Assembly (NCBI RefSeq): GCF_016903815.1
Contig: NZ_CP069973.1
Direction: 5' to 3' (one strand)
DNA from: Escherichia coli
Lineage (GTDB): Bacteria; Pseudomonadota; Gammaproteobacteria; Enterobacterales; Enterobacteriaceae
Length of the DNA stretch: 64,000 bases
Under the pieces are notes generated by a model. It had not been told where the DNA came from, made no database searches, and saw only the letters and a list, made by a program, of their open reading frames with translations. Of the stretch, positions 511 to 30,047 are shown one piece after another. The position numbers were made by a program, and so were the translations under genes. The first letter of the stretch is position 1. Each line of letters begins with the position of its first letter.

Positions 511-760
511 ACGCTGTCCTGAAATATAGACGTTAAACAACCCCCTGTATTGCGAGGGTAATTTTGTCTTTCCGGTCAGCAGCCAGCAAAAGGGAAAGAA
601 AACGCGCGTAGTGTATGTGGCGATAGCAAGTTTTACAAGTGGTAAATCTGGCTTATTGTTAAAGAGGAATTATCTTTTGTGAAGTCTTTTAAGGCCATGA
701 CTCATTCAATTTAACCGGACATAGATAATATATAACATAGGGTATATAAATTTATCATTG

Positions 761-892
761 TATACTTGTCATAATTCAAGTTGCATGTGCTGCATCGATG
801 TTCGCTCACTCAGGTCACTTACTTATGTAAGCTTCTGGAAATTCATTATTTGTTCCCTTCCTGCAACTTGACTTATTTAGAGTATATTCATG
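761..892. repeat. ERIC/IRU intergenic repeat, copy 1
   Basis: Contains caagttgcatgtgctgc...ttcgctcac...agtcacttacttatgtaagct, the reverse complement of the ERIC core (AAGCTTACATAAGTAAGTGACTGGGGTGAGCG); about 85-90% identical by eye to the second copy at 46690-46816. Confidence 0.8.
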
Positions 893-1098
893 TATATGAA
901 TAATATTCTTGCAATAATAGCTTTAAAGTATTGCATGCGGATAACTGAGGTGAAATTCCTGTTTTAGGATTATTGTCACTTTATTTTCCTGGTTAGACAT
1001 ATAGCTGACTGGTTTGTTTATTTGAATTATGATATTCATTAGTGCTACTGTTTTTTATAAAATAATTTTTGAATTGTTATTTTTTCACGGACGGAATT

Positions 1099-2004
1099 AT
1101 GCGAGGAAAAATACCTAAAACGGAGCTGCTGGTGACTTTTGAGGTCGTCGCACGTTATGAAAGTTATACCAGAGCGGCAGAGGAGTTAGCGTTAACCCAA
1201 AGTGCAGTATTCAGACAAGTAAGTGCGCTGGAGGAATTTTTACATACTCCGTTATTTTCACACTCTAAAAAACGCATTTTTCTTAATGATGCAGGGAAGT
1301 ATTACCTGGGGATAGTAAAAGAAACATTAAATAAGCTGGAACGCGATACCAATACCATTATGACCTGGCAGCCTACGGTTCAGGTTATTGAACTTGCCGT
1401 GAATCCTACGTTTAGTACCCACTGGTTAATCCCAAATTTACATGAATTCACAAAGTTACATCCCGATATTATTGTTAATATTCACTCTTTAGCTAATAAC
1501 GGCGATTTTCTTAATCGGGAGTACGATGCTGTCATTATGCGCGAAAATTTTTGCGCGCCCTGGGCGGAAGTAGAATATCTCTTTGATGAGGAGATTTTGC
1601 CGGTATGCAGCGGCAGTTTGCTTGCAATGTCCGATCAAAAACTGTCAGTGGCAGAACTGCTTACAGAGTTACCACTTCTGCATCAAAGTACCCGTATTAC
1701 TGGCTGGGAAGAGTGGTTTGCCTTATCTGGCGTTAGCAGTCCGCTGGTCAACAACGGACCACGTTTCGATTTGCTTTCAATGCTGATTGCCGCCGTGCGC
1801 TCTAATCTCGGCGTGGCGCTGTTACCACGGTTCGCTATTCAACATGATTTGGATAGTGGCGATATGGTGATTCCCTGTGATGTGCCTATTCGTACCGGTA
1901 ATCGTTTTATTATGACGTGGCAGGAAGAGAAGTCTGACTCACCGCACTTGCAGCAATTTCGTGAATGGTTGCTGGCGAAATCGGTTGTACCGCAGGAGAT
2001 GTAA
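1099..2004 (+). CDS. LysR-type transcriptional regulator (likely regulator of the adjacent glutamate-fermentation operon)
   Basis: ORF 1069-2004; N-terminal HTH signature (TFEVVARYESYTRAAEELALTQSAVFRQVSALE) places the likely start at ATG 1099 (MRGKIPK). C-terminal LysR substrate-binding domain length (about 300 aa). Confidence 0.8.
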   Translation: MRGKIPKTELLVTFEVVARYESYTRAAEELALTQSAVFRQVSALEEFLHTPLFSHSKKRIFLNDAGKYYLGIVKETLNKLERDTNTIMTWQPTVQVIELAVNPTFSTHWLIPNLHEFTKLHPDIIVNIHSLANNGDFLNREYDAVIMRENFCAPWAEVEYLFDEEILPVCSGSLLAMSDQKLSVAELLTELPLLHQSTRITGWEEWFALSGVSSPLVNNGPRFDLLSMLIAAVRSNLGVALLPRFAIQHDLDSGDMVIPCDVPIRTGNRFIMTWQEEKSDSPHLQQFREWLLAKSVVPQEM

Positions 2005-2006
2005 AA

Positions 2007-2034
2007 CCTGCGCCTGGCGGGATGCCAGGCGCAG
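2007..2034. terminator. Bidirectional rho-independent-like hairpin between the convergent LysR and adenosyltransferase genes
   Basis: cctgcgcctggc-gggat-gccaggcgcagg perfect GC-rich inverted repeat directly after the LysR stop (2002-2004) and after the end of the minus-strand operon (2038). Confidence 0.6.
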
Positions 2035-2037
2035 TTA

Positions 2038-2640
2038 TTACCAGTCGATACCCGGCTGGGCCTGAATGCCGTTATCAAAAGCATGTTTGACGGGGCGGAT
2101 TTCGCTGACCGTATCCGCCATTTTTAATATCTGACTGTGGCAACCGCGTCCGGTGACAATGACACTTTGTTGTGCCGGGCGGTTTTGCAGAGAAGCGATC
2201 ACTTCTTCGGTATCCAGATAATGGTAAGCCAGCATATAGGTCAGCTCATCAAGCACCACTAAGTCGTAACGCTTGTCAGCCAGCATCCGTTTGCTTTCCG
2301 ACCAGACCTCTTTCGCCGCGTCGATATCCGCTTGCCGGTTCTGTGTCTCCCAGGTAAAACCGGTTCCCATAATATGAAACTCAACCCCCAGCGGCTGGAG
2401 AAGGTTGTATTCGCCGTTGTCCCATTGCCCCTTGATGTACTGCGCAACCCCCACCGTTTTGCCATGACCCACCGCGCGCGTCACAGTACCAAACGCGGCA
2501 GTGGATTTCCCTTTGCCATTGCCGGTGAAAACAATCAAAATCCCTTTTTTCTCTATCGCCGCCGCGATGCGCGTATCGACCTGTTCCTTCAATTTCTGCT
2601 GGCGCTGCACATGCCGTTCAGTTGAAATTCGCGCTTCCAT
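2038..2640 (-). CDS. cob(I)alamin adenosyltransferase (BtuR/CobA/CobO family)
   Basis: 200 aa; P-loop GNGKGKST and overall similarity to BtuR/CobO; last gene of the B12-dependent glutamate mutase operon. Confidence 0.8.
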   Translation of the reverse strand: MEARISTERHVQRQQKLKEQVDTRIAAAIEKKGILIVFTGNGKGKSTAAFGTVTRAVGHGKTVGVAQYIKGQWDNGEYNLLQPLGVEFHIMGTGFTWETQNRQADIDAAKEVWSESKRMLADKRYDLVVLDELTYMLAYHYLDTEEVIASLQNRPAQQSVIVTGRGCHSQILKMADTVSEIRPVKHAFDNGIQAQPGIDW

Positions 2641-2649
2641 TCATTTTCC

Positions 2650-4302
2650 TTAATGTCCCGCAGGGCAACTGGCGCAGCGGTGTTGCTGCTCAAACTGACT
2701 AAAGAAATTATTGCCTTTATCATCTACCAGGATGAATGCGGGCAGATTTTCCACTTCCATCATCCACACCGCTTCCATACCCAGCTCCGGGTATTCCAGG
2801 CAACGCAGACTTTTGACATATTCTTGCGCCAGTAACGCAGCTGCACCGCCAATACTACCCAGATTGAAGCCACCATGTTTGTGACAGGCATCGGTGACCT
2901 GCTGGCTGCGGTTACCTTTCGATAACATCACCAGACTGCCGCCAGCCGCCTGGAAGGTATCGACATAACCGTCCATTCGACCGCCCGTGGTTGGACCCAG
3001 TGAACCGCAGGCCATGTTCTCCGGTGTTTTCGCCGGGCCAGCGTAATAGACAATATGATGCTTCAGGTAATCCGGCATCGGTTCGCCGCTATCCAGCCGC
3101 GCTTTTATTTTGGCGTGGGCGATATCGCGCGCCACTACGATGGGACCATTTAACGACACGCGGGTGCCTACCGGTAATCTGGCGAGATCCTGCATCACGT
3201 CACGCAACGGACGGTTTAGATCCAGTTGTACATGTGGCGCGTGATTTTCTTCCCGCAGTGAGGCTGGAATATATTGCCCCGGATTGTGTTCGAGTTTTTC
3301 CAGCCAGATACCGTGCTTGTTAATTTTTGCTTTGATATTGCGATCGGCAGAACAGGAGAGCGCCATAGCTATCGGGCAAGAGCCACCGTGACGCGGCAGA
3401 CGAATGACGCGAATATCATGAGCGAAATATTTACCCCCAAATTGCGCACCAATACCAAATTGCTGACTGGCCTCGAGCAACACTTTTTCCAGCTCAATAT
3501 CACGGAATGCTTGTCCCTGCTCGTTTCCGCTGGTGGGCAAATTGTCGTAATATTTCGTTGAGGCCAGCTTGGCAACTTTTAAGGTTTGATCGGCTGAAAG
3601 CCCTCCGACGACAAAGGCGATGTGGTAAGGCGGGCAGGCAGCGGTGCCCAGCGATTTCATTTTTTCGATTAAAAATGCGGTCAGTTTTTCTGGTTGCAAT
3701 AAGGATTTGGTTTCCTGATAAAGTGCGGCTTTATTGGCGGAGCCGCCCCCTTTATTAACACAGAGAAAATGGTACTCATTACCAGCGACAGCGCTGATAT
3801 CAATCTGCGCCGGGAGATTGGTTTGCGTATTGACTTCGGTATACATATCCAGCGGCGCATTTTGTGAAAAGCGCAGATTATTTTCCTGGAAAGTACTGTA
3901 AATGCCTTTGCTTAAGGCTTCAGCGTCGTTACCTCCCGTCCATATCTGTTGCCCTTTACTGGCAACAATAGTTGCGGTGCCGGTATCCTGACAGTTGGGT
4001 AATATCCCTTTTGCTGAGACTTCAGCATTACGTAATAACTGCAACGCAACGTATTTATCATTACTACTGGCCTGCGGATCGTTAAGAATGCTGGCGACCT
4101 GTTGCAAATGAGCGGAACGTAAGAAAAAAGAGGCTTCATAAAATGCCTGCCGGGCAAGCAGCGTTAATGCTTCAGGAGCGATTTTTATCACTTCTTCGCC
4201 GTCTAATTCCGTTACTGTAATATGTTGATCGCTAATTAATGTATATTCTGTACCGTCTTTATTTTGTAGAAACGGTTCTTGCCAGATAAATGGTTTGGAC
4301 AT
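2650..4302 (-). CDS. fumD: Class I (Fe-S) fumarate hydratase family protein, predicted mesaconase/fumarase
   Basis: 550 aa, full-length FumA/FumB-like protein with conserved Cys ligands; sits in a methylaspartate-pathway operon where mesaconate hydration is the required step. The fumD name is from memory of the literature, not verified. Confidence 0.8.
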
Positions 4303-4409
4303 ATTTCACTTTTCACCTTAAACGTTAGTGTTACTTAATTGCCGTCTAACTTCATGATCCGGCTTATAAAAATGCGTAGTCATTGGCTTCTGATTGCTTA
4401 AGATCCCCC

Positions 4410-5690
4410 TCAGGGCAGAGCAACGTTCGATTCATTGGGTTTTAATGCTTTACCCCGACAACCCTCGCCGAAATGTTCGCCTTCCCACCGACTCACCATC
4501 GCAGCGCCCATTGCGTTGCTCATGACGTTTGTCGCGGAACGCCCCATATCAAGGAACGGATCAACGCCCATCAGCAAGATCAGCCCCGCTTCCGGAATAT
4601 TGAACTGGTTGAGCGTGGCGGCGATAACCACCATTGAGGCGCGTGGTACGCCAGCCATTCCTTTCGAGGTCAACATCAGGATCAACAGCATGGTGATTTG
4701 CTCACCGATGGATAAATGGATATTGCAGGCCTGGGCGATGAAAACTGTGGCGAAGGAGCAGTAGGCCATTGATCCAACGAGATTAAATGAGTAGCCAATG
4801 GGTAAGACAAAGCTGGCAATTTTGGGGGAAACGCCAAATTGCTCCAGTTTTTCAAGCGTTCCCGGAAAAGCCGCTTCAGAACTGGATGTGGTAAATGCCA
4901 GCAGGGCGGGTTCCGAAAGGGCGCGGGTCAGGCGTCTGATGCAGGGGCCGACATAAACGATGGCCAGACCGATAAGCAGCACCCAAAGTAATAACATGGT
5001 GAAATAAAATTCACCCATAAAGATCCCGGCGCTCACCATAACTGCCAGTCCTCGTTCAGCAATCAATGCTGAAATAGCAGCGAATACGGTCAGGGGAGCG
5101 AAGAGCATGACGTAGCCAGTGAGCTTTAACATGGCATGTGCCAGCGAATCTAAGGCGTGAACGATGGCGCTGCCTTTCTCGCCAATCGCCGTCAGGCTAC
5201 AGCCGAGGAAAATTGAGAACACCACGATTTGCAAAATTTCATTGTGCGCCATGGCATCGACAATGCTGGTGGGGAAAGCATGCGAAATAAATACTTTTAG
5301 CGTAAAGGGTTCTGACGCGACCACTCCGGTGGTTTCGGCTCCGTGTGCAACAAAATTAATTCCTGTGCCTGGCATGAAGAAATTTACTGTTATCAAGCCT
5401 AAGGCAATTGACAGCAATGAGGCGCAAATAAATAAAAAGAGTGTTTTAGAAAAAATACGACCAAGGGCTTTGGCATCTCCCATTTTAGCTATACCTACCA
5501 CCAGGGTAGAGGCCACTAACGGAGCGATAATCATTTTTATCAGTCGTAAGAAAATCGTCGTGAATATCGATATTTCTTGCGCATAGAGTTTTGCGGTTTC
5601 CGGTGAAGCAGTGTTATTGAGCACTACGCCGATAATCACTCCAAGTACCAGCGCCAAAAGAATCATCGTGGTTAAACTTATTTTCTTCAT
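4410..5690 (-). CDS. Dicarboxylate/amino acid:cation symporter (DAACS, GltP/DctA-like), probable glutamate or C5-dicarboxylate transporter
   Basis: ORF 4410-5711; multiple TM segments and DAACS family similarity. Start trimmed to ATG 5690 (MKKISLTT), which is preceded by a GGAGGA ribosome-binding site. Confidence 0.8.
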   Translation of the reverse strand: MKKISLTTMILLALVLGVIIGVVLNNTASPETAKLYAQEISIFTTIFLRLIKMIIAPLVASTLVVGIAKMGDAKALGRIFSKTLFLFICASLLSIALGLITVNFFMPGTGINFVAHGAETTGVVASEPFTLKVFISHAFPTSIVDAMAHNEILQIVVFSIFLGCSLTAIGEKGSAIVHALDSLAHAMLKLTGYVMLFAPLTVFAAISALIAERGLAVMVSAGIFMGEFYFTMLLLWVLLIGLAIVYVGPCIRRLTRALSEPALLAFTTSSSEAAFPGTLEKLEQFGVSPKIASFVLPIGYSFNLVGSMAYCSFATVFIAQACNIHLSIGEQITMLLILMLTSKGMAGVPRASMVVIAATLNQFNIPEAGLILLMGVDPFLDMGRSATNVMSNAMGAAMVSRWEGEHFGEGCRGKALKPNESNVALP

Positions 5691-5850
5691 TTTTTCCTCC
5701 ATCAGGTGCACGGCGATAAATCAGAATCAGGAGAAGTAGATGCCTGAATAGAGATTCAGGCACCTACCTGCTATTACAACCTTACAAATAGCTGAAGTGT
5801 TGAACTGCAATAAGTGACGGGATGTCAGTTGGCTAAAAGTATTCGGATTT

Positions 5851-6168
5851 TTACAAATCGAAACTCATATTTAATAAAGGTGCATGTTGCTGTGCACCAT
5901 AGACATCATTGTCACCTACATTCCCGGAGATAATATCTCGTGGCATGACGATTTTTACTGCGTTAGAAGGATCAAACCAGACAATACGGTGAATAAAGTC
6001 AGGTTCAACATGATATAAGCGCGCAATCAGTTCTGGGGTTAATTGCCCTGATGATTTAACTCGCTCATAGTTTTCTTTCGTTTTAAATAAAATATCTAAA
6101 ACCAGTTCGTAAGGTCCGGCATTTTTCGAACGAATGACTTGCGCCAGTGAGACAATTGACTGTTTCAT
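5851..6168 (-). CDS. Small conserved protein of unknown function (DUF4387-like), partner of the upstream DUF1446 gene
   Basis: 105 aa ORF whose start overlaps the stop of the 456-aa ORF by 4 nt (translational coupling); family assignment is from memory. Confidence 0.6.
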   Translation of the reverse strand: MKQSIVSLAQVIRSKNAGPYELVLDILFKTKENYERVKSSGQLTPELIARLYHVEPDFIHRIVWFDPSNAVKIVMPRDIISGNVGDNDVYGAQQHAPLLNMSFDL

Positions 6169-7535
6169 GCCTGAACTCCTTCTGGCGTCACCTGTTCAAT
6201 ATGGAAATCAAAACGCAGAGCGTCGTTGGCTTCAATCAGGTGATATATGGAAAATTCGTATACTGGCCCGCCCTGGATATCAGAAGGGGAGAACGGGAAC
6301 GCCAGGTTGCCTGCGGTAGCGATGCGGTTTTCATAGCCGTAGTGCAGCATAGTAGAGCGCACCAGCGAGCAAACGCTGTTGGCAATCTCCTGGGTCGGCG
6401 CAACTACATCTAGGACAATCCCCAGCTCATGCCCGGCAGTTTGCATCGGTTCATGGTCGCCCATCACCCCGTTTTTGCCGTACAGGTGGAAATTGATGTG
6501 AATGCTGTCATCGTCGAGCGACAGGTTACGCGAAACGCTGGTTTTGACTTCATCGATGATTTTATCGATCCCGGCGATCATGATCGGGTCGCGCGTTCCG
6601 GCGATGGTCAGACAGCGGAAGCCCACCCGTCGCGCACCTTCCAGTTTCAGGGCATACGGCGTTTCTTCATGCTTAGAACCGCTGACGTACACTTCGCTGT
6701 CATTGACCGCTTTAAATGTGCAGCCTTTCAGGTTCAACACGCCGCCAGGTCCAGGCAGGAAGTAGGGATCGGATTTCTCATACAGTGTGTGTGCAGCCGC
6801 TGACGTTTCGGTAAATTTACGCTTCGGATTAAATGTCTTCAGCGTAAAGCCGTTGTCATCAATGATGCCCATCGCACAGTCAGAGCCTGAGCCGGGCGTT
6901 GCGGCGATTGCCGCGCATTCAAGGATTTTCCCACAATGCAGCGCCAGACCTTCATCAAAGCCTTGCATGATCGGAAGCGCAGCAAAGCAGGCCGGGTCGT
7001 AAGCGCGCCCGCCCAGCACCACTTGCGCGCCTTCTTTCAGCGCCTGCTGGAAGGGTTCGATGCCCATTTGCGCGACGATATACGTACTTTCGTCAATCGC
7101 GTCGTGGGTTAACGGCGGGACAAAATCCAGCGCCGTGATTTTGCCGTTATCCAGCGCCTGGTGGACGATGGCTTTGTCAACGTCTGCCGGGATCAGCGCC
7201 ATCGAGAACGAGAGGTGCTCTTCCCGGGCAATCTCATGAATTATTTCTCGGCACCACTCCAGGTGTGGTGCGGCACCAGAACCGCCAGCCGTTCCGATCA
7301 CCACCGGTATATTATTTTGCACGCCTGCGGTGATCATATAGCGCAGATCGCGCTTGACCCCTGCGCGATCGGTAAACGGTTTGCCTGCCCCGAGGTAGTG
7401 GGGGCCTGGATCGGAAGAGCCTGCATCAACGGCGATCAGATCGGGCGATTCTGCCATCGCTTTGCGGAAGCTCTCTTCCGGGAATCCATACCCGAGGATT
7501 GCCGTTGGCGATAAGACTTTAAAAGAACGAGCCAT
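6165..7535 (-). CDS. AtuA-like / DUF1446 family protein of unknown function
   Basis: 456 aa ORF, operon-internal between methylaspartate ammonia-lyase and the transporter; resembles the AtuA (acyclic terpene utilisation) DUF1446 family by length and N-terminal motif. No characterised catalytic function known to me. Confidence 0.6.
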   Translation of the reverse strand: MARSFKVLSPTAILGYGFPEESFRKAMAESPDLIAVDAGSSDPGPHYLGAGKPFTDRAGVKRDLRYMITAGVQNNIPVVIGTAGGSGAAPHLEWCREIIHEIAREEHLSFSMALIPADVDKAIVHQALDNGKITALDFVPPLTHDAIDESTYIVAQMGIEPFQQALKEGAQVVLGGRAYDPACFAALPIMQGFDEGLALHCGKILECAAIAATPGSGSDCAMGIIDDNGFTLKTFNPKRKFTETSAAAHTLYEKSDPYFLPGPGGVLNLKGCTFKAVNDSEVYVSGSKHEETPYALKLEGARRVGFRCLTIAGTRDPIMIAGIDKIIDEVKTSVSRNLSLDDDSIHINFHLYGKNGVMGDHEPMQTAGHELGIVLDVVAPTQEIANSVCSLVRSTMLHYGYENRIATAGNLAFPFSPSDIQGGPVYEFSIYHLIEANDALRFDFHIEQVTPEGVQA

Positions 7536-7538
7536 TTG

Positions 7539-8780
7539 TTAATCCTTAGCCTGCAACAGCGCGATAGTACGATTCATTTCGTTGAAGACGATATCGAGGC
7601 CTTCGTCAAAGCCCATCCCTGGTTTTACCAGCATACGCATGGGGCGAGCGGCAAGGGCGACGTGGACACAGGTGCGGGCACTGACATCAGTTTCATTGCA
7701 GGTGCCGCCCTGGTACGCTTCCATGTTGTGGCTGTTGCAATAAAGAACTGCATCGACGATGTTGTGAATACTGCCCAGATCCGGGGTTTTGATTTGCACC
7801 ATGTGGCAACTGGCGGCATCGGTGAAATCAACAATATCCTGGTAGGTGTTACACCATTCATCGGCCACTAGTTTCACGCCGGAACCGAGGCGCGTCAGCT
7901 CTTTGGTAATCGCGGTCAGCAGGCGAATTTGATCGGGCTTGTTACCGGCATCGACCGGACCTTCAATGTAGAGCGGCAGGCCTTGCGCTTCTTTTTCCAG
8001 GCTGGCGATGTATTGCGCACAGCGAAGCGGATCCATATCGAAGATCAGACCGATAGTGCCGTATACATCGATGTGCAGGGTAGGGTGGTAGCGTGCGCTG
8101 GTGCGCTTGCTCAGAATACGATCCGACAGCCAGCGGACATATTCGCGCAGTTTTTCACCTTTAAAGCCCAGTTTCTCTTCGACGTTATTAATCAGTGCAT
8201 GGGGCAGCACGTCGATGCCCTTAAGGATCATCTTATCGACGGCGATATATCGATCGTCGCCGCTCTGACCAAATAATGGAATGGATTCCGCCACGCGTGG
8301 CAACTGCCATTCATCACAGACCACTTCAGTTTTCAGACGGCCGGTTGCCAGCGCGGTAGCATCAAGCAGCGCCTGTGATAATCCGTAGCGCACGGCGGTA
8401 TGCAGCAAGTTGCCGTCAATACGCAATTTGTCGAAGAAACGGGCATTCGGCAGGAAAGTATCCACATCGCGGCCTACCAGTAATGGCTTGATATGGTCGT
8501 TGAGGAACGGAATAAAGTGCTCCGCGAGGAACAGTGGATCGCGACCACCTGCCCCGGAATACTGTACGGCAGCACAGTCACCTACGGCGACCGCGCCGTT
8601 TTCCAGAATCAACTGTACCGATACGCACTCCCCGGCCTGACGTACGGCGTTAAACCCCTGTGTTACTGGCTCCCCGGTATAAAAAAAACCGTCGTGACCC
8701 GCTCCGTTTTTTATCGCCTGCTGGTCATCGAAATAGAATGAGGAGTAGCCAGCGGTAAAAAGGGCCTGTTTTATTTTCAT
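7539..8780 (-). CDS. 3-methylaspartate ammonia-lyase (methylaspartase, enolase superfamily)
   Basis: 413 aa, classic methylaspartase length and enolase-superfamily architecture; immediately downstream of the glutamate mutase genes. Confidence 0.85.
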   Translation of the reverse strand: MKIKQALFTAGYSSFYFDDQQAIKNGAGHDGFFYTGEPVTQGFNAVRQAGECVSVQLILENGAVAVGDCAAVQYSGAGGRDPLFLAEHFIPFLNDHIKPLLVGRDVDTFLPNARFFDKLRIDGNLLHTAVRYGLSQALLDATALATGRLKTEVVCDEWQLPRVAESIPLFGQSGDDRYIAVDKMILKGIDVLPHALINNVEEKLGFKGEKLREYVRWLSDRILSKRTSARYHPTLHIDVYGTIGLIFDMDPLRCAQYIASLEKEAQGLPLYIEGPVDAGNKPDQIRLLTAITKELTRLGSGVKLVADEWCNTYQDIVDFTDAASCHMVQIKTPDLGSIHNIVDAVLYCNSHNMEAYQGGTCNETDVSARTCVHVALAARPMRMLVKPGMGFDEGLDIVFNEMNRTIALLQAKD

Positions 8781-10225
8781 TATGGTCTTCCTATTAATTT
8801 ACTGTGGGATACAGCATTGATGTCATCTACAACCATCTGGAATGTCGGTTGGCGTCCTTCAAAGCGTGCGCGTTCCGCAACGTAATCGTGGTGGAGGTCG
8901 AGAATATCTTTTGGCAATGGAACGGCTCCGGCTTCCAGTACGCGTATCGCGCCGGTGTTGTCACGGACCGGAAGAATTTTGCCCGCGTTACACGCGGCTG
9001 GTGCAAATGGCACATCCAGTACGCCCGCTTCAAATGCCAGCACCGTACCGCGCGCAATATCACCATTACCCAGTTCGAACACTTTATTCAGTACCGCGCG
9101 AACCTCGCTCTTAATCAGTTCAATTTCCAGTTCAACCGCAGGGCACGGCGGGAATTTCTGCTCATTGACCATGTTGAGCATCTGGCGGGAGGCTTTCAGC
9201 CCCTGAATGTTGGCAGCGGCAGTCGGGATTCCCCAGGCTTCGTGAGGGCTTTTGGTGATGACTTTGGTGGCACCAGACATCCCCGCGACGGCTGCACCCC
9301 AGGAGATAATGGCGAACGCTTTCGATTCGTCTTCCGGAAAGCCGCCCATCCACTGGTGAAATACGGTACTTAATTCATAGTCGGTATAGCCATAGTTCTG
9401 AAAGTATTCGTGTGCAAGTTCACGCAGAGACTGGATCGCCGCGACATCCTGCGTCAGGCTGCCGACCTGTCCATAACCAACGGTGATAGATTTCACACCC
9501 TGTTCCAGCGCCAGTAATCCTTCGATTATCGCGATAGAGTGCGAGATAAACGGCGGGATCAGCGTACCCGTTAGTGGGCCAAATGGTTCGCGGTTGATGC
9601 GGATCCCGTGTTCTTCATACATCCCCATTAAACGGTCGCAGTACTGCCAGTCGCGGATCGATTTTTCCAGCGTTACGCGCTTGGCATACGGAATATTGTA
9701 GGAAATGCCGCCGCCTTCATAACTGGTAAAGCCGCTGGCCATCGAGATTTCAGCCAGCAGACGCGCATCTGGCGTGCCGTGGCGGATCTGTAGCGGTTTT
9801 TGCAGAGTTTCGGTGAGGCGACGGCAAGCTGCGACGCCGTGGTTAACGACCGGTAAACCGTTCAGTTTAGAGGTTCCGGCTTCGATGGATTTTTTAATCC
9901 CTACAGCAGCTTCTTCGTACCGATTCAGACGGGTATATGCATCGATGGTGCTCGGCAGCAGATCGCACTCTTCTTGTAGTGTTTTCAGTAGTTCGATGTG
10001 TTCGTCCATCAGCGCCACGCCTGCGCGCGGTTGGCTAAGAGTTTTACCTTCCTTGTCTGCTTTCAGCAGGGCAAGAGAGAAGCGTTTATGCTCAGGAATG
10101 GTTTGTTGGTATTTAACGCCATCTTCAAAGTTTTCAACATCCTTGCCGGTTTCCCAGGTTTTCAATACCTGTTGCCGCTCGGTCATGAATTCGTTATGGG
10201 TTAATTTCTTATTTCGAAGTTCCAT
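8780..10225 (-). CDS. Glutamate mutase epsilon (large catalytic) subunit, MutE/GlmE
   Basis: 481 aa, TIM-barrel large subunit length; operon context with the S and L components. Confidence 0.85.
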   Translation of the reverse strand: MELRNKKLTHNEFMTERQQVLKTWETGKDVENFEDGVKYQQTIPEHKRFSLALLKADKEGKTLSQPRAGVALMDEHIELLKTLQEECDLLPSTIDAYTRLNRYEEAAVGIKKSIEAGTSKLNGLPVVNHGVAACRRLTETLQKPLQIRHGTPDARLLAEISMASGFTSYEGGGISYNIPYAKRVTLEKSIRDWQYCDRLMGMYEEHGIRINREPFGPLTGTLIPPFISHSIAIIEGLLALEQGVKSITVGYGQVGSLTQDVAAIQSLRELAHEYFQNYGYTDYELSTVFHQWMGGFPEDESKAFAIISWGAAVAGMSGATKVITKSPHEAWGIPTAAANIQGLKASRQMLNMVNEQKFPPCPAVELEIELIKSEVRAVLNKVFELGNGDIARGTVLAFEAGVLDVPFAPAACNAGKILPVRDNTGAIRVLEAGAVPLPKDILDLHHDYVAERARFEGRQPTFQMVVDDINAVSHSKLIGRP

Positions 10226-10243
10226 TGATTGCAGCCTTAATTG

Positions 10244-11632
10244 TTATAGGGTTAAGCATTGAATACTGGTGCGCGCGGCGGCCAGTGGATCGACTCTGGC
10301 GACGTTTGCCAGCAGTGGTAATAGCCCCCGGGAATCGCGGTAATATTCAAATTCGGTCGGTAAGAGAATGCGTTTACCGTCGTCGTTTAACTCGCGGTAT
10401 TTCAACCAGTGATGCATATCGAACTGACTGGCACGCGAGAGCCATCCGCCGGAACCCACGACTTTACGCACGGTTGTCAGGTCACGTCCCATCTGTAAAT
10501 CGACATTGCCGACGCAGGTGCAGACCTCTTTTTTGGTGCCCGCATGTCTTTCGGTGGCATAACCCACACACAGTCCGGCCAGGACGGTATCGAAATATTT
10601 TTCTTCTGCATTCGCGGGTAAGTAGTCGGGATGAGCGACTAGATGACGGAGGTAATGATAAAAAGCGTCCAGCTGTGCGGGTTGCTGAGCAAAATTCACA
10701 TTGACTAACTCTTTCGCACTTTCACCAACCACCATTGCCGAGACGCGCATTCCCAGATCGCCTTCCACCGTCCGTTTCACGAAGGGTTCCGGTACGCCAT
10801 GTAAAACAGTGTCGGGCGAGAGCGTGTTGGCACAGGCTGAATAGACATCGGTGGTTGCGCCGCCCATGTCGATCAGCATGAACTCCTTCCAGCTGTGATC
10901 GACGTTACTGATTGCCTTAACCAGTTCAAAGACCGTCCATGGTGTCGGCATTGGTTCTTCGCCTGTTTTATCAACAATGACATCCAGCCCTTTCCCTTTA
11001 ACGATGCGTTTAAGGAATATGTCGCAGATAGCCTGGCGTGCAGCTAAAGGGTTCGGATGGTCAAGATCGGGCAGAACGTTGTCGACGATGGTCAGGTCTT
11101 TATGCCCTAGGATCTCCTGCACCTCGTCCTGAATATCCCGGTTTCCGGCATAAATAATGGCGCAGTCGAGTTTGGATTCTGCCAGCACACGGGCGTTATT
11201 CAGGCCGTAGCTTTCTTCTCCGCCGTCGGTGCCGCCGGTGAACAAGAGAATATCGGGCTGCGTTTCTTCCAGTGCCTGGATATCACGGCGGTTCAGCTTG
11301 TAGGCGTAATATTGCGCAATTTTAGCCCCCGCAGAGTGAGCGGTTACTTTCGCGGTTTCCAGGGTGATAGAAGGCACCAATCCCATTGCGGCAACCGCCA
11401 GCCCACCTTTGGCAGAGGAGGAATACTTCAATGTAACCTCACCGCTGTTAAACAGGGGGAGGGCATTATCTACGTTTAACACCAGGTTCAGGCTGGAGAA
11501 AAACCCCTTCGCCAGATGATGGGTGGTGGTTGGGGTCAGTACGTGGTTAACCAACGTTAACGCGTCCCCCTCCCGGGCGAAGAGGGCTGCTTTGGTCCAC
11601 GTCGAACCAATATCGACAGAGACGATTTGCAT
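10244..11632 (-). CDS. Glutamate mutase L component (MutL/GlmL, reactivating chaperone-like ATPase)
   Basis: 462 aa ORF between the S and E subunits, the typical glmS-glmL-glmE order; ASKHA-like N-terminus ([18 protein letters not shown]). Confidence 0.8.
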   Translation of the reverse strand: MQIVSVDIGSTWTKAALFAREGDALTLVNHVLTPTTTHHLAKGFFSSLNLVLNVDNALPLFNSGEVTLKYSSSAKGGLAVAAMGLVPSITLETAKVTAHSAGAKIAQYYAYKLNRRDIQALEETQPDILLFTGGTDGGEESYGLNNARVLAESKLDCAIIYAGNRDIQDEVQEILGHKDLTIVDNVLPDLDHPNPLAARQAICDIFLKRIVKGKGLDVIVDKTGEEPMPTPWTVFELVKAISNVDHSWKEFMLIDMGGATTDVYSACANTLSPDTVLHGVPEPFVKRTVEGDLGMRVSAMVVGESAKELVNVNFAQQPAQLDAFYHYLRHLVAHPDYLPANAEEKYFDTVLAGLCVGYATERHAGTKKEVCTCVGNVDLQMGRDLTTVRKVVGSGGWLSRASQFDMHHWLKYRELNDDGKRILLPTEFEYYRDSRGLLPLLANVARVDPLAAARTSIQCLTL

Positions 11633-12081
11633 CAGATTGCCTCTTCAAGAATGCGAGTATCAACGTTATGACGTTGGTTGATATCGTGGGCCATCAGCTG
11701 ACAAACATCTTCTAAGTCATGACTTGGGGAAAAGACGCGATCAAATCCCATCTCTTTGAACTTGGTTTCCACGTCAGCGAAGTCATGTTTTCCGACCACC
11801 AGGTTACCGCCCACATAGAGCAGGATGTTACCCAGCCCACGCTCGATGCAGCGTTCGCGCATGCCCAGACAATCGATATCGCCATGCCCATAGATAGAGG
11901 AGACGACAATCGCGTCAGCACCAGTTTCAATGGCAGCATCAATATATTCGTCCTGGCTGACCATTACGCCCAGATTAATAACTCTGAAGTCATGGTTGCT
12001 AAAAACGCGGTCCAGAACTTTATTGCCTACTGCATGGCAGTCCGCGCCAATAACGCCAATCACAAGTGTTGCTTTCTTCAT
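11632..12081 (-). CDS. Glutamate mutase sigma (B12-binding) subunit, MutS/GlmS
   Basis: ORF 11632-12144; cobalamin-binding DxHxxG motif ([11 protein letters not shown]). Start trimmed to ATG 12081 ([12 protein letters not shown]), preceded by AAGGA, giving 149 aa. Confidence 0.8.
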
Positions 12082-12627
12082 GGGTAATCCTTTGTAAGAC
12101 AGAGAGTAAAATAAGTTACACACGTCGTATTTATGGCCGCTCATAACGGCACAGGTTTAATATCACAGGAGTGTCTTTATCTGACCGTAATGTTGCAATT
12201 GATCTATTTTCAAAATGTCTTTCGGGAAATGATTGTTTAAAGTGTGTTTTCAAATTCTCATTTTAATTCAGTGTGTTATGTCAACTAATGTCATGAATGT
12301 TAAATTTTTAAAATTAACTTGATTTGATGTATTGAGATAATTGTGATCAACTTCTAATTTGCATTTTTGTGACGTGGCTTTAGCCATGAGTAAATGCATT
12401 TCATAAAAGTTAAGTCGAATTTCACTGCAATTCATCTCTGCTTAATGTAAAAATAATGTTGAAAATAACAAATAATTAATGATTCATGCGAATTATGACC
12501 TTTGTTAGCTCTTTTGATTTTTCGTAAAAAAGAAAAGTACATGAAGGTGCTACCAGTACGAGTAACGTTAATCAAAAGTTTTATTACGTCTGGCAATAAC
12601 GCAGGCCATTTTCGCGACTGGGTGGAT

Positions 12628-13050
12628 TTAATCAGTATAATCCTCATACAATAGGTCAGGATTTACTGAACCGTTAACGGGGATTTGGTGTTGAAATTTA
12701 GAAATGGCGGAGTCAATTAATGAAGACAATATCGGAAAAATGACAGTGTCAGAATTAATTTCAATTAATCCTTCTCGTTGTTGACCAAAAAAGATATTTA
12801 TCTTGATTTCATTTGTACTACGGCAATCAATATGCAGTAATTTTTGATCGCTGAGATTTTCTGTTTCATAAATGTTTTTGGCGATAGTCGGATGTATTGA
12901 TGCCAGACATCTGCTCAGATAAGCCAGATCCTTTAGGGAACACCCCGCTGAGTAGAGGATGTCAGAGAATTTTTGTGTGTCAACTGTTGTCTCTGAAGCG
13001 TATGTTGCATTGACAGGAAGGGTGTTGAAAGAGATTTGAGATGGGATCAT
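12628..13050 (-). CDS. Hypothetical protein, no recognisable family (orphan, AT-rich)
   Basis: 140 aa ORF in a strongly AT-rich block, co-directional with and 80 bp downstream of the 314-aa ORF; no motif I can assign. Confidence 0.5.
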   Translation of the reverse strand: MIPSQISFNTLPVNATYASETTVDTQKFSDILYSAGCSLKDLAYLSRCLASIHPTIAKNIYETENLSDQKLLHIDCRSTNEIKINIFFGQQREGLIEINSDTVIFPILSSLIDSAISKFQHQIPVNGSVNPDLLYEDYTD

Positions 13051-13130
13051 TATTTAAATCTTTCCGTGAGTAATAAAAATTAATCCCCGGGCATTGTTTG
13101 GCAATATTTGCCACAGGGAATATATAAAAA

Positions 13131-14075
13131 TTAAAGTATTTGATTGGCATCGGTTAACTGATCAATAACCAGTGCCAGATTGGTAAACATTTTGAAAAAG
13201 CGATACTGGCTCGGAATATCTCTTTCAAAGACGAAACATTCAATGTCATTGTTTGAAAAATAAAGGACTAGTGTTGCTGATTCGTCAGGAAAAATATGGA
13301 AATATATCTGGTTACCAGAAGGAGGATAGTCCAGAAGAAGGGTATCTTTGCCCGTCACATACCTGTTGTGGTCGTGGATGCTGCGCTCACACTTCATCAG
13401 AGGTGTCATGATACTCATGTATTCATCTGATGTTAATATATTAAAATCACCATCCATTTTAAAGAAACGATAAAGTAACAGTACATCCTCTTGCGTAACC
13501 GGTTCGTTTGTTTTTAGAGGGAAATAAGTGGGAACCAGAAGATGAGGTTCTAATCTATTTTGTTGAGCGCTATAACTAAATTTGAACATAAATTCCGGAT
13601 CGCTCATCAATTGAGCGACATAATTATGCCTGGCTTCAAAAATTTTAACTTTTATCAGGTTAAATAAGTCTGTTTCGTCATCCTGTATTAAAAGACATTG
13701 ACCATAGCAGCCAGGCTTTTTTTCATTATAAGCAGAAACGGTTATTCTGTCAGGAGTGTCAACGTTATATCCAAAAGCCAGATAGTGACCTTCCTCATCG
13801 AGATTTGTTTCCAGGTTATTTAAATTCATCACATGAAGTGTTTGCAATGCTGATTCAATGAGCTGTTGACTCTCTGAGGTAAATGTTTCGCGCTGCGTTG
13901 TATAAAGTGTATCGATTCCAACGACTATCCGATGTGGATCAAGGATGGCGGCAATCATCTTTATTACCTGCACAGTCATGGGTGATGTCATTGATTCTTT
14001 ATCTGTTTTTAGAGGATCATTAGATGGCCAACCTGAGAAGCGATTGACAGCAGAACTGATATTATCAGGACTCAT
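13131..14075 (-). CDS. Hypothetical protein, no recognisable family (orphan, AT-rich)
   Basis: 314 aa ORF, uninterrupted, in AT-rich DNA between the glutamate operon and the cydA regulatory region; codon usage atypical for the E. coli core. Confidence 0.55.
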   Translation of the reverse strand: MSPDNISSAVNRFSGWPSNDPLKTDKESMTSPMTVQVIKMIAAILDPHRIVVGIDTLYTTQRETFTSESQQLIESALQTLHVMNLNNLETNLDEEGHYLAFGYNVDTPDRITVSAYNEKKPGCYGQCLLIQDDETDLFNLIKVKIFEARHNYVAQLMSDPEFMFKFSYSAQQNRLEPHLLVPTYFPLKTNEPVTQEDVLLLYRFFKMDGDFNILTSDEYMSIMTPLMKCERSIHDHNRYVTGKDTLLLDYPPSGNQIYFHIFPDESATLVLYFSNNDIECFVFERDIPSQYRFFKMFTNLALVIDQLTDANQIL

Positions 14076-14880
14076 AGCAGCAACCTCATTGTAATCAAGC
14101 GAGGCGCTGAGCGTACTCGGCTATAGAAAAACTAACTTGCAAAAATCGCTCATTTTTCATTTATCAGGCGAAAGTGGTCTCTGTTCACTCAGAAACAATC
14201 ACTCCCGCTAAGTCATACCTGTTTCATCGATACATTTAAGTGATTATTACTAATGAAACAATAACATAACGGGCTTACGGCCGGTGCTCATAAAGGCAAC
14301 AATCAATTAACTTTGATAAAAATATGTTATGTAAAATAGCAACAAATTGGCTAATCTAATCAATTGGTATTATAAAAAGTGGATAGGGCGGTTCTGTTAA
14401 ATAAAACACTGGTTTTTTATCTATACCTTTTCATTGTAATAATTGTGTTGCATAAATATTTCACAATAAATTAACAATAAAATCACCAATGATCTATGGT
14501 TTATACATAATTAACATATTTGGTTGGTTTTGATATAAATCAATTTTTAATTCTTGAAAAAAATCTGCAAAACACGATAAATTGTCGTAGATCAAATTGG
14601 TGAGATCGTGACAATTTCGCTATAAATTGATCACTGTCGAAAAATGCAAATTTGCTCAATAAAAACCTGTTTATTGTAAGGATTTTGCGGCGTAATATAA
14701 TTACGGGATCAATTTGGTTTATTCATTAACATATTTGTAACTTTTTTATCATTGTCTTTTCCTCTTTTGATGAAATGGCAACGATAGAGGCGAGCAAATA
14801 ATTTTGTATTGGGGCATGCGTGTGACCCTTTCTAACGGGGTTCACTCTCGGAGTCTTCATGCGATGAGCAAGGAGTCATG
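14076..14880 (+). promoter_or_regulatory. Long AT-rich cydA upstream control region (multiple promoters, ArcA/FNR/H-NS regulated in K-12)
   Basis: About 800 bp non-coding AT-rich DNA directly upstream of cydA, as expected for the cydAB control region; individual sites not resolved by eye. Confidence 0.6.
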
Positions 14881-16449
14881 ATGTTAGATATAGTCGAACT
14901 GTCGCGCTTACAGTTTGCCTTGACCGCGATGTACCACTTCCTTTTTGTGCCACTGACGCTCGGTATGGCGTTCCTGCTGGCCATTATGGAAACGGTCTAC
15001 GTCCTTTCCGGCAAACAGATTTATAAAGATATGACCAAGTTCTGGGGCAAGTTGTTTGGTATCAACTTCGCTCTGGGTGTGGCTACCGGTCTGACTATGG
15101 AGTTCCAGTTCGGGACTAACTGGTCTTACTATTCCCACTATGTAGGGGATATCTTCGGTGCGCCGCTGGCAATCGAAGGTCTAATGGCCTTCTTCCTCGA
15201 ATCCACCTTTGTAGGTCTGTTCTTCTTCGGTTGGGATCGTCTGGGTAAAGTTCAGCATATGTGTGTCACTTGGCTGGTGGCGCTCGGTTCAAACCTGTCC
15301 GCACTGTGGATTCTGGTTGCGAACGGCTGGATGCAAAACCCAATCGCGTCCGATTTCAACTTTGAAACTATGCGTATGGAGATGGTGAGCTTCTCCGAGC
15401 TGGTGCTTAACCCGGTTGCTCAGGTGAAATTCGTTCACACTGTAGCGTCTGGTTATGTGACTGGCGCGATGTTCATCCTCGGTATCAGCGCATGGTATAT
15501 GCTGAAAGGTCGTGACTTCGCCTTCGCTAAACGCTCCTTTGCTATCGCTGCCAGCTTCGGTATGGCTGCCGTTCTGTCTGTTATTGTTCTGGGTGATGAA
15601 TCTGGTTACGAAATGGGCGACGTGCAGAAAACCAAACTGGCTGCTATTGAAGCCGAGTGGGAAACGCAACCTGCGCCTGCTGCCTTTACTCTGTTCGGCA
15701 TTCCTGATCAGGAAGAGGAGACGAACAAATTTGCGATCCAGATCCCTTACGCGCTGGGCATCATTGCAACGCGTTCCGTGGATACTCCAGTTATCGGCCT
15801 GAAAGAACTGATGGTGCAGCATGAAGAACGCATTCGTAACGGGATGAAGGCGTACTCTCTGCTCGAACAACTGCGTTCTGGTTCTACCGACCAGGCGGTT
15901 CGTGACCAGTTCAATAGCATGAAGAAAGACCTCGGTTACGGTCTGCTGCTGAAACGCTATACGCCAAACGTGGCTGATGCGACTGAAGCGCAGATTCAAC
16001 AGGCAACCAAAGACTCCATTCCGCGTGTAGCGCCGCTGTACTTCGCGTTCCGTATCATGGTGGCGTGTGGCTTCCTGCTGCTGGCAATCATCGCGCTCTC
16101 TTTCTGGAGTGTCATCCGCAACCGCATTGGCGAGAAAAAATGGCTGCTGCGCGCCGCGCTGTACGGTATTCCGCTGCCGTGGATTGCTGTAGAAGCGGGC
16201 TGGTTCGTGGCTGAATATGGCCGCCAACCGTGGGCTATCGGTGAAGTGCTGCCGACAGCTGTGGCGAACTCGTCACTGACCGCAGGCGATCTCATCTTCT
16301 CAATGGTGCTGATTTGCGGCCTGTATACCCTGTTCCTGGTGGCAGAATTGTTCTTAATGTTCAAGTTTGCACGCCTCGGCCCAAGCAGCCTGAAAACCGG
16401 TCGCTATCACTTTGAGCAGTCTTCCACGACTACTCAGCCGGCACGCTAA
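14881..16449 (+). CDS. cydA: Cytochrome bd-I ubiquinol oxidase subunit I
   Basis: Translation [28 protein letters not shown]... matches CydA; ORF track starts one Met earlier (14878). Confidence 0.97.
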
Positions 16450-22498: not shown

Positions 22499-23044
<546 letters not shown>

Positions 23045-23053
23045 GAGAATTGC

Positions 23054-23845
23054 ATGAGCAGTAACTTCAGACATCAACTATTGAGTCTGTCGTTACTGGT
23101 TGGTATAGCGGCCCCCTGGGCCGCTTTTGCTCAGGCACCAATCAGTAGTGTCGGCTCAGGCTCGGTCGAAGACCGCGTCACTCAACTTGAGCGTATTTCA
23201 AATGCTCACAGCCAGCTTTTAACCCAACTCCAGCAACAACTCTCTGATAATCAATCCGATATTGATTCCCTGCGTGGCCAGATTCAGGAAAATCAGTATC
23301 AACTGAATCAGGTCGTGGAGCGGCAAAAGCAGATCCTGTTGCAGATCGACAGCCTCAGCAGCGGTGGTGCAGCGGCGCAATCAACCAGCGGTGATCAAAG
23401 CGGTGCGGCGGCATCAACGACGCCGACAGCTGATGCTGGTACTGCGAATGCTGGCGCGCCGGTGAAAAGCGGCGATGCAAACACGGATTACAATGCAGCA
23501 ATTGCGCTGGTGCAGGATAAATCCCGCCAGGATGACGCAATGGTGGCATTTCAGAATTTCATCAAAAATTACCCTGATTCAACTTACCTGCCAAACGCCA
23601 ATTATTGGCTGGGTCAGTTAAACTACAACAAGGGTAAAAAAGATGATGCGGCGTACTATTTTGCTTCGGTAGTAAAAAACTATCCGAAGTCACCAAAGGC
23701 TGCAGATGCGATGTTTAAAGTCGGCGTCATCATGCAGGACAAAGGTGACACCGCAAAAGCGAAAGCCGTATACCAGCAGGTTATCAGTAAATACCCTGGT
23801 ACTGATGGCGCTAAACAGGCACAAAAACGTCTGAACGCGATGTAA
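23054..23845 (+). CDS. cpoB: Cell division coordinator CpoB (YbgF), TPR protein
   Basis: 263 aa, signal peptide, coiled-coil and C-terminal TPR region; last gene of the tol-pal cluster. Confidence 0.95.
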   Translation: MSSNFRHQLLSLSLLVGIAAPWAAFAQAPISSVGSGSVEDRVTQLERISNAHSQLLTQLQQQLSDNQSDIDSLRGQIQENQYQLNQVVERQKQILLQIDSLSSGGAAAQSTSGDQSGAAASTTPTADAGTANAGAPVKSGDANTDYNAAIALVQDKSRQDDAMVAFQNFIKNYPDSTYLPNANYWLGQLNYNKGKKDDAAYYFASVVKNYPKSPKAADAMFKVGVIMQDKGDTAKAKAVYQQVISKYPGTDGAKQAQKRLNAM

Positions 23846-24009: not shown

Positions 24010-24085
24010 GGGTCGTTAGCTCAGTTGGTAGAGCAGTTGACTTTTAATCAATTGGTCGCAGGTTCGAATCCTGCACGACCCACCA
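24010..24085 (+). tRNA. lysT: tRNA-Lys (anticodon UUU)
   Basis: GGGTCGTTAGCTCAGTTGGTAGAGCAGTTGACTTTTAATCAATTGGTCGCAGGTTCGAATCCTGCACGACCCACCA, 76 nt with encoded CCA. Confidence 0.97.
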
Positions 24086-24220
24086 ATCGCTAAGGTGGAA
24101 GCGGTAGTAAAACGTGAAGGATAACGTTGCGTCAGCAACGGCCCGAAGGGCGAGACGAAGTCGAGTCATCCTGCACGACCCACCACTAACCTAGTTAGTT
24201 GTAGTATCCAGCGTAGTATC

Positions 24221-24296
24221 GGGTGATTAGCTCAGCTGGGAGAGCACCTCCCTTACAAGGAGGGGGTCGGCGGTTCGATCCCGTCATCACCCACCA
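24221..24296 (+). tRNA. valT: tRNA-Val (anticodon UAC)
   Basis: GGGTGATTAGCTCAGCTGGGAGAGCACCTCCCTTACAAGGAGGGGGTCGGCGGTTCGATCCCGTCATCACCCACCA. Confidence 0.97.
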
Positions 24297-24298
24297 CC

Positions 24299-24374
24299 GG
24301 GTCGTTAGCTCAGTTGGTAGAGCAGTTGACTTTTAATCAATTGGTCGCAGGTTCGAATCCTGCACGACCCACCA
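24299..24374 (+). tRNA. lysW: tRNA-Lys (UUU)
   Basis: Identical to the tRNA-Lys at 24010; 2 nt after the preceding tRNA-Val. Confidence 0.97.
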
Positions 24375-24425
24375 CTAATTACGGTGGGTTCGGTGGAAGT
24401 AGTTTGTAGTATCCAGCGCAGTATC

Positions 24426-24501
24426 GGGTGATTAGCTCAGCTGGGAGAGCACCTCCCTTACAAGGAGGGGGTCGGCGGTTCGATCCCGTCATCACCCACC
24501 A
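24426..24501 (+). tRNA. valZ: tRNA-Val (UAC)
   Basis: Identical to the tRNA-Val at 24221. Confidence 0.97.
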
Positions 24502-24504
24502 CTC

Positions 24505-24580
24505 GGGTCGTTAGCTCAGTTGGTAGAGCAGTTGACTTTTAATCAATTGGTCGCAGGTTCGAATCCTGCACGACCCACCA
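24505..24580 (+). tRNA. lysY: tRNA-Lys (UUU)
   Basis: Identical tRNA-Lys sequence. Confidence 0.97.
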
Positions 24581-24726
24581 ATTTTAACATCAAACTCAGA
24601 TGTTAAGCGTGAAGGATAACGTTGCGCCGGCAACGGCCCGTAGGGCGAGCGAAGCGAGTCATCCTGCACGACCTACCAATTTTAAAGATTGGTTCCGAGT
24701 AGAAATCTTTCAGGTAACACCCGTAT

Positions 24727-24802
24727 GGGTCGTTAGCTCAGTTGGTAGAGCAGTTGACTTTTAATCAATTGGTCGCAGGTTCGAATCCTGCACGACCCAC
24801 CA
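24727..24802 (+). tRNA. lysZ: tRNA-Lys (UUU)
   Basis: Identical tRNA-Lys sequence. Confidence 0.97.
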
Positions 24803-24934
24803 ATTTAAAGGTGGTTACTGGTAGAGAACGTGAAGGATAACGTTGCGTTAGCAACGGCCCGAAGGGCGAGACGAAGTCGAGTCATCTTGCACGACCCACC
24901 ATCCTGAATGATTAAAGCAGCATAATCCCGCAAG

Positions 24935-25010
24935 GGGTCGTTAGCTCAGTTGGTAGAGCAGTTGACTTTTAATCAATTGGTCGCAGGTTCGAATCCTGCA
25001 CGACCCACCA
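24935..25010 (+). tRNA. lysQ: tRNA-Lys (UUU)
   Basis: Identical tRNA-Lys sequence; last tRNA of the operon. Confidence 0.97.
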
Positions 25011-25014
25011 ATGT

Positions 25015-25042
25015 AAAAAAGCGCCCTAAAGGCGCTTTTTTG
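25015..25042 (+). terminator. Rho-independent terminator of the lysT tRNA operon
   Basis: aaaaaagcgccctaaaggcgcttttttg directly after lysQ; an exact second copy lies at 25161-25187. Confidence 0.85.
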
Positions 25043-25353
25043 CTATCTGCGATACTCAAAGATTCGAACCTGCAGCAGGTTTGAGTTGAGCGCAGCGAAA
25101 CAACGGAGCCGCTCGCGGCGACGGCCCGAAGGGCGAGCGAAGCGAGTCATCCTGCACGACCCACCAATGTAAAAAAGCGCCCTAAAGGCGCTTTTTTGCT
25201 ATCAGGCATCTCTCAATTTCAATTCTTAACCCTGATGACATACTCCGCGCTTGCTGCGTAAACAACTCTACGTCGGAGGAATAAGACGCAAAGTGTGGCA
25301 TTCGTCATCTCATACGTAATTCGAGTGACTTTTCCCCACCATTCGACTATCTT

Positions 25354-26486: not shown

Positions 26487-26523
26487 CGAATAATAAGGCG
26501 TAACGTTACGCTTTGGGGGAAAG

Positions 26524-28181: not shown

Positions 28182-28237
28182 GACGAGTCATCCCTTAATT
28201 ATTCTCACTTAACTTTATGACATCATACTGCTTTTAG

Positions 28238-28273
28238 AAGGGAAAAATTAAAAGGGAGAGACTCCGCTCTCCC
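28238..28273 (-). terminator. Rho-independent terminator of ybgS
   Basis: gggagag-actccgc-tctccc hairpin followed on the minus strand by a T-run. Confidence 0.65.
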
Positions 28274-28294
28274 ATTATTGGCTATTTCGCAGGG

Positions 28295-30042: not shown

Positions 30043-30047
30043 GGTTT

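Follow-up and report, generated by a model that had tools for sequence, protein, structure and literature searches.

Within the 64,000-nucleotide stretch of Escherichia coli DNA analyzed here (the window; contig NZ_CP069973.1, assembly GCF_016903815.1), two similar segments lie about 46 kb apart, one of them beside a strain-variable set of genes for glutamate fermentation. The locus raises the question of what these segments are, what the first of them says about the origin of its neighbors, and whether the pair can rearrange the DNA between them. A sequence-only reading had taken both for ERIC elements, drawn from the first an enterobacterial origin for the accessory segment, and proposed the pair as a substrate for inversion or deletion. 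The answer reached here, which is held with high confidence, is that both are ERIC elements, that the distal copy (copy B) is an old, fixed part of the core genome, and that the copy beside the accessory genes (copy A) is a rare, decaying relic that does not recombine with copy B.

ERIC, equivalent to IRU and RU-1 (Sharples and Lloyd in 1990, Hulton et al. in 1991 and Wilson and Sharp in 2006, as cited in PMC2229807 and PMC2759123), is a 127-bp, imperfectly palindromic, MITE-like repeat of Enterobacteriaceae that is not self-mobile. Pairwise alignment bore out the proposal of two homologous segments on the same strand, at essentially the positions first given for them, with window 741-912 alignable to 46670-46836. 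The limits of the elements were set with two published references, the RU-1/ERIC consensus for E. coli and SeRU-1 of Salmonella (PMC2759123, Table 1a), and place copy A at 761-886 (126 nt) and copy B at 46689-46815 (127 nt), both on the plus strand and a few bases off the original limits of 761-892 and 46690-46816. The two copies are identical at 107 of 127 columns (84.3%), with one 1-nt gap; the homology thus stands, while the earlier figure of 85-90% was slightly generous. At the left end identity sets in abruptly with TATAC, at the right end it dies away within about 10 nt of GAGTATA, and the flanks of the two copies are unrelated. Since the homology ends at the limits of the element, the element alone is shared and there is no larger duplication.

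An nhmmer profile built solely from these two references (PMC2759123, Table 1a), and so independent of the window copies, gave exactly two full-length matches in the 64-kb window, copy B at E=8e-41 and copy A at E=1e-23, each covering model positions 1-127 and confirming the assignment of both segments to ERIC. All other nhmmer matches in the window had E>1, leaving no third ERIC there, and one further signal was a reverse-strand self-match, as expected of a palindrome. ERIC elements are described as having terminal inverted repeats of about 7 bp with 5'-TA-3' at both termini (PMC2229807, Table 1). Copies A and B both carry the terminal TA, and the 7-bp inverted repeat matches at 7/7 positions in copy B (TATACTC...GAGTATA) and 6/7 in copy A (TATACTT...GAGTATA). 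The ERIC2 and ERIC1R primer sequences, which mark the conserved central inverted repeat of ERIC, match copy B at 22/22 positions each and copy A at 19/22 (ERIC2) and 18/22 (ERIC1R), with zero matches in 100 shuffles; the central inverted repeat at these sites is intact in copy B and degraded yet recognizable in copy A.

The resemblance could also be that of a chance palindrome or of a segmental duplication, rather than of two members of a repeat family, and the AT-rich setting of copy A is the one observation, and the only one, that speaks for this. Speaking against it are the end-to-end matches of both copies, at the E-values given above, to a published consensus that is independent of them, as do the failure of the shuffles to reproduce the primer sequences, the unrelated flanks, and the fact that the ERIC part of copy A alone matches hundreds of enterobacterial plasmid records, whose genera belong solely to the Enterobacterales. 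This account is refuted, its residual probability being practically negligible, and the similarity spans the full element rather than the short chance palindrome against which the sequence-only reading had cautioned. Multiplicity is also seen for the region of copy B, which, even under the stringency of megablast, has matches at a median of five sites per genome of E. coli.

Both copies therefore belong to the ERIC/IRU/RU-1 family, which they resemble in length (126-127 nt), in an end-to-end match with 7-bp terminal inverted repeats and terminal TA, and in a long predicted hairpin at an intergenic site in an enterobacterial host. Copy A departs from the family in being unusually diverged (about 76% identity to the E. 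coli consensus) and AT-enriched, and in lying between divergent genes rather than after or between co-oriented ones. With SeRU-1, the Salmonella-type variant (Delihas, 2007; PMC2759123), both window copies share the outer arms TATACTCGTCATACTTCAAGTTGCATGTGCTGC ... CCTTCCTGCAACTCGAATTATTTAGAGTATA, and both are nearer to it than to the E. coli consensus (92.9% vs 88.2% identity for copy B, 79.5% vs 75.6% for copy A), although the central core of copy B (CACCCCAG...CTCCTGGGG) is of the E. coli consensus type and not of the SeRU-1 type. REP/BIME elements are likewise short, palindromic, intergenic and multi-copy, but REP units are about 35 nt long, GC-rich and unrelated in sequence, and none is involved at copies A and B. 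Similarity between ERIC copies was often seen to extend, on either side, 5-9 nt beyond the 127 nt of the published consensus. In both copies of the window, for instance, GAGTATA is followed by T-CAT-TAT (886-895 and 46815-46824), and plasmid matches to the ERIC of copy A cover window 756-895. This may mean that the element is somewhat longer than its published form or that insertion favors certain sites.

Rfam, which is without an ERIC family, returned nothing at copy A or copy B at gathering thresholds. At relaxed thresholds the sole family to appear was RF02818 (V_AS5), aligned over its full 129 model positions on the minus strand of both copies, at 46693-46816 in copy B (49.7 bits, E=3.5e-10) and at 765-887 in copy A (17.9 bits, E=0.67). 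Both scores are well under the gathering score of 96, and the two copies were accordingly ruled out as members of this Vibrio family. V_AS5 (Vibrio RNA AS5, antisense) itself appears to be an ERIC-type repeat or hairpin modeled under another name, and its full-length alignment provides independent, structure-aware support for regarding both copies as ERIC-type hairpins, with copy A degraded.

Copy B is the well preserved member of the pair, as judged by nhmmer, alignment, primer sites and fold. It lies between ybhI (45254-46687, plus strand), which is annotated in MG1655 and in strain 7/2 and whose 3' end abuts the element, and ybhJ (46870-49131, plus strand), whose annotated start codon was seen in the window and whose end is taken from the 2262-bp MG1655 gene. 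The element begins 1 nt after the stop codon of ybhI, and its end is 54 nt short of the start codon of ybhJ. Of 5426 complete E. coli genomes, 5322 have it, counted by coverage of at least 80% of a 431-bp surrounding region, and its MG1655 counterpart, identical at 125 of 127 positions, is the K-12 ybhI-ybhJ ERIC. Its GC content is 45.7%, and it is predicted to fold into a hairpin of -40 and -48.3 kcal/mol on the plus and minus strands, with z-scores of -4.9 and -7.4 against shuffles. Copy B is an old, fixed ERIC of the core genome in a good state of preservation. The distance of 1 nt from the ybhI stop codon makes co-transcription with ybhI likely; the element would then occupy the 3' untranslated or intercistronic region after ybhI, where its transcript would fold into the long hairpin typical of ERIC. 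By analogy with ERICs of Yersinia, for which effects on mRNA stability have been reported (De Gregorio et al., 2005, as summarized in PMC2229807), this hairpin may modulate the stability of the message.

Annotation agrees with the gene context first proposed for the two copies, with copy B between ybhI and ybhJ and copy A between an RtcB-family gene and a LysR-family regulator gene. The 5' part of the RtcB-family gene occupies 1-509 on the minus strand, and the gene continues beyond the window's left end (RefSeq annotation of an identical region in strain 7/2, NZ_CP023820.1), and the LysR-family gene, the first of the glutamate-fermentation cluster, occupies 1099-2004 on the plus strand and has orthologues in other genera. 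Copy A, identified as a full-length but decayed element by alignment, nhmmer, the V_AS5 match and its fold, is 251 nt from the RtcB start codon (509) and 212 nt from that of LysR. Over its first 3 kb the window is identical to strain 7/2 and to many further strains. In strain 7/2 the gene order is sucD, mngR, mngA, mngB, the RtcB-family gene (minus strand), copy A and the LysR-family gene (plus strand), continuing with cobO, a class I fumarase gene, a transporter gene, DUF4387 and an AtuA-family gene, and ending with methylaspartate ammonia-lyase, glmE, glmL, glmS, two hypothetical genes and cydA.

Genome comparison places copy A on an AT-rich, single-copy, lineage-specific piece of 463 bp (618-1080) that occurs in 150 of 5426 complete E. 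coli genomes (about 3%), once in each. The view of copy A as lying inside the accessory segment thus holds in that the DNA around it varies between strains, and fails in that it is no part of the conserved cluster: copy A sits on a rare junction piece outside it. About 1130 of the 5426 genomes match some part of an 851-bp RtcB-LysR query, most of them just in 152 nt at the start of the LysR gene and the adjoining 18 nt upstream. A stretch of about 270 bp directly upstream of LysR is common to O157, strain AH50, Escherichia whittamii and Escherichia sp. MOD1-EC7003, and in the lineage of the window this native region has been replaced, bar its last 18-50 bp. The 463-bp piece showed no similarity to the intergenic DNA of O157, AH50, E. 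whittamii, MOD1-EC7003 or Citrobacter, and all that is shared in these comparisons is the 108 bp nearest to RtcB and the 18-50 bp nearest to LysR. Neither the fetched loci nor the plasmid collection yielded a donor of the piece; among the plasmids the ERIC portion alone has matches, and the piece itself occurs solely in a mis-filed chromosome.

With these comparisons the variable region between sucD and cydA is better mapped, and at least four alternative arrangements are now seen upstream of LysR. Apart from that of the window, O157 has sucD, 666 bp and LysR; AH50 has sucD, RtcB, hutU through hutH and LysR, with the same arrangement in a metagenome bin labeled Citrobacter (99% identity); and Escherichia sp. 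MOD1-EC7003 has an RtcB-LysR spacer of 1073 bp that is without an ERIC. The hut (histidine utilization) operon found between the RtcB-family and LysR genes of some E. coli is complete, comprising hutU, a permease gene, hutD, hutI, hutG and hutH (25920-33661 of locus L007, NZ_CP169755.1, from AH50; 1989-9727 of locus L008), and it stands exactly where the window has the 463-bp ERIC piece. Because histidine degradation yields glutamate, the hut and glutamate-fermentation clusters may together make up a single catabolic island.

The glutamate-fermentation (methylaspartate pathway) cluster itself is annotated at 2038-12081 on the minus strand and contains cobO, fumD, the transporter gene, DUF4387, the AtuA-family gene, methylaspartate ammonia-lyase, glmE, glmL and glmS, with matches to PDB chains confirming the methylaspartate ammonia-lyase and the glutamate mutase. 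The cluster, which extends from LysR to glmS, has been described before, with reported frequencies of 26.5% for E. coli and 14.8% for Enterobacteriaceae (Kronen and Berg, 2015; PMC4682846). In the present comparison, the LysR-glutamate mutase cluster occurs in about 1130 E. coli genomes and in many genera that are without copy A. A cross-genus scan of the LysR orthologue and its downstream genes, with one genome per species, recovered this orthologue together with cobO, fumarase, transporter, ammonia-lyase and glmE, as well as glmS where the locus extended far enough, in many species of Citrobacter, in Salmonella enterica subsp. arizonae and diarizonae, in Klebsiella oxytoca and Klebsiella grimontii, and further in Enterobacter, Lelliottia, Buttiauxella, Pluralibacter and Escherichia whittamii. 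Across genera the proteins are 79-93% identical, and at many loci the LysR orthologue lies a few kb downstream of sucD. The methylaspartate ammonia-lyase of the window scores 896 bits against chain 1kko, the enzyme of Citrobacter amalonaticus; against the chain in second place, 1kcz, the enzyme of Clostridium tetanomorphum, it scores 504 bits.

On the origin of these genes, the conclusion that they are enterobacterial rather than a recent clostridial import survives, although the ERIC that had been offered as its evidence is weak. Copy A could have arrived after the cluster did, and it adds little on origin because other genera and most E. coli are without it; an ERIC beside an accessory cluster neither dates nor sources that cluster. 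That the cluster has long resided in Enterobacteriaceae is nonetheless well supported by comparative sequence data, namely the shared position beside sucD and the protein identities across genera, along with the ammonia-lyase scores given above. With an nhmmer profile that included the window copies, other ERICs were matched in or near the cluster of Citrobacter, Klebsiella oxytoca and Buttiauxella, at different intergenic positions (9797-9921 and 15729-15852 of locus L015 from C. amalonaticus S646; 12836-12960 of L022; 15861-15942 of L040; 7700-7899 of L035), a pattern that fits repeated independent colonization by ERIC while the cluster resided in enterobacterial hosts. The weak ERIC at L015 9797-9921 lies 79 nt upstream of LysR and was considered as an orthologue of copy A; this was rejected on its unrelated flanks and its absence from two other C. 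amalonaticus genomes, and the element is treated as a probable independent insertion.

Copy A itself bears the marks of decay. Its GC content is 36.5%, in surrounding intergenic DNA of 33.6% GC, and 14 of the 19 substitutions from copy B to copy A are from GC to AT. The predicted hairpin has energies of -30.6 and -30.0 kcal/mol on the plus and minus strands (z-scores of -3.2 and -3.3 against shuffles), with the outer stem kept and the central stem weakened. Among five diverged carrier lineages alone, a small sample differing by up to about 8% within the ERIC, variable columns make up 11.9% of copy A, 9.8% and 10.3% of the non-coding flanks to its left and right, 2.8% of the RtcB-proximal 108 bp and 4.6-6.2% of the adjacent coding sequence. 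Given that it varies as fast as its non-coding flanks, copy A is most likely a neutrally decaying relic without a function of its own. Several variants of copy A from other lineages resemble the consensus more than the window's copy does, and a parsimony ancestor is 89% identical to copy B with a somewhat better hairpin (-34.8 kcal/mol). All 150 genomes that carry the left flank have the ERIC, and no empty-site allele of copy A was found among these 150 carriers; for copy B there was none either, and a 2-nt target-site duplication is not callable in such AT-rich flanks. For the history of copy A we infer an older or faster-decaying insertion on the 463-bp AT-rich piece, one whose composition would be moving neutrally toward that of the AT-rich DNA around it. 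At most, copy A is an uncatalogued degenerate member of ERIC and copy B is a known ERIC of K-12; the biology is known, and the significance is small. The result confirms that ERIC elements can be recognized by a reader without tools.

Against a neutral relic stands the idea that copy A was co-opted and gives a promoter hexamer or a 5'-UTR hairpin that alters expression of LysR or of the RtcB-family gene diverging from it. In the carrier lineage the native stretch of about 270 bp upstream of LysR is gone, replaced by the 463-bp piece, and a sigma-70-like site pointing toward LysR (TTTAGA, a 17-nt spacer and AATAAT at 876-904) begins within the right terminus of the ERIC; ERIC effects on mRNA stability in Yersinia, as summarized in PMC2229807, could be read in the same direction. 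However, such promoter-like matches are not enriched in the region over shuffles (five found vs 2.7 +/- 1.6 expected), copy A varies as fast as its flanks with its central stem degraded, and the effect in Yersinia concerns ERICs co-transcribed between genes rather than ones in divergent promoter regions. Co-option is accordingly unlikely. Quite unlikely, too, is the specific proposal that the 463-bp piece replaced the LysR promoter region in about 3% of E. coli, with the right terminus of the ERIC perhaps supplying part of a promoter; if true, control of the glutamate-fermentation cluster or of the RtcB-family gene would have been rewired. A neutral relic is the preferred account of copy A.

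The remaining part of the sequence-only reading, that the pair may mediate rearrangement, fares poorly. The copies are direct repeats, and recombination between them could therefore solely delete or duplicate the intervening 45.9 kb; the inversion that had been suggested is impossible. That the copies are an active substrate of homologous recombination, deleting or duplicating this interval, finds its support in their direct orientation, their length of about 127 bp and their identity of 84%. The longest uninterrupted identity between them, however, is 20 nt, below the minimal efficient processing segment of roughly 23-27 bp for RecA-dependent recombination in E. coli, and a divergence of 16% would further invoke the mismatch-repair barrier. 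Junction queries joining the left flank of copy A to the right flank of copy B, and the left flank of copy B to the right flank of copy A, found no place covering both halves of either query in any of the 5426 genomes, which leaves the suggested deletion unsupported as well. The interval also carries cydAB, tol-pal, the Lys/Val tRNA array, nadA, gal and mod, and its loss would probably be costly. Recombination between the copies is thus largely refuted and very unlikely, two 127-bp copies at 84% identity being an unrealistic substrate.

Rearrangements do occur in the vicinity of copy A. An 8.8-kb deletion in six of the 150 carrier genomes (strains A25, 2012C-4502 and JNE112863 among them) spans approximately window 897-9740 and removes LysR through most of glmE. 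Its left breakpoint falls 10 nt to the right of copy A, beside a small palindrome (ATTCATGTATATGAAT), and its right breakpoint inside glmE, with a junction of 2-nt filler that shows no repeat homology (6279-6282 of locus L005; L006). Mediation of this deletion by ERIC was considered and rejected on the ground that its far end in glmE is without ERIC homology. An IS200C in strain elppa5 was likewise considered as an insertion in the ERIC, and was found to lie between the LysR gene and cobO instead (2382-2840 of locus L050, NZ_CP083503.1). In strain 14EC033, an IS1B truncates LysR, and DNA has been removed as far as the transporter gene (4039-5377 of locus L004, NZ_CP024147.1).

Several other features were observed elsewhere in the window. 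A low-GC stretch (35-37% GC) at 12000-15000 forms the right edge of the accessory region and holds two hypothetical genes on the minus strand between glmS and cydA (12628-13050 and 13131-14075). Rfam further identified a tRNA array at 24010-25166, in which one tRNA occurs five times and a second one twice; the array corresponds to the Lys/Val tRNA cluster and is interleaved with four RtT repeat matches. Additional matches in the window are a CpoB/ybgF thermometer (22945-23083), a Moco riboswitch (59961-60105) and STnc490 (63693-63816).
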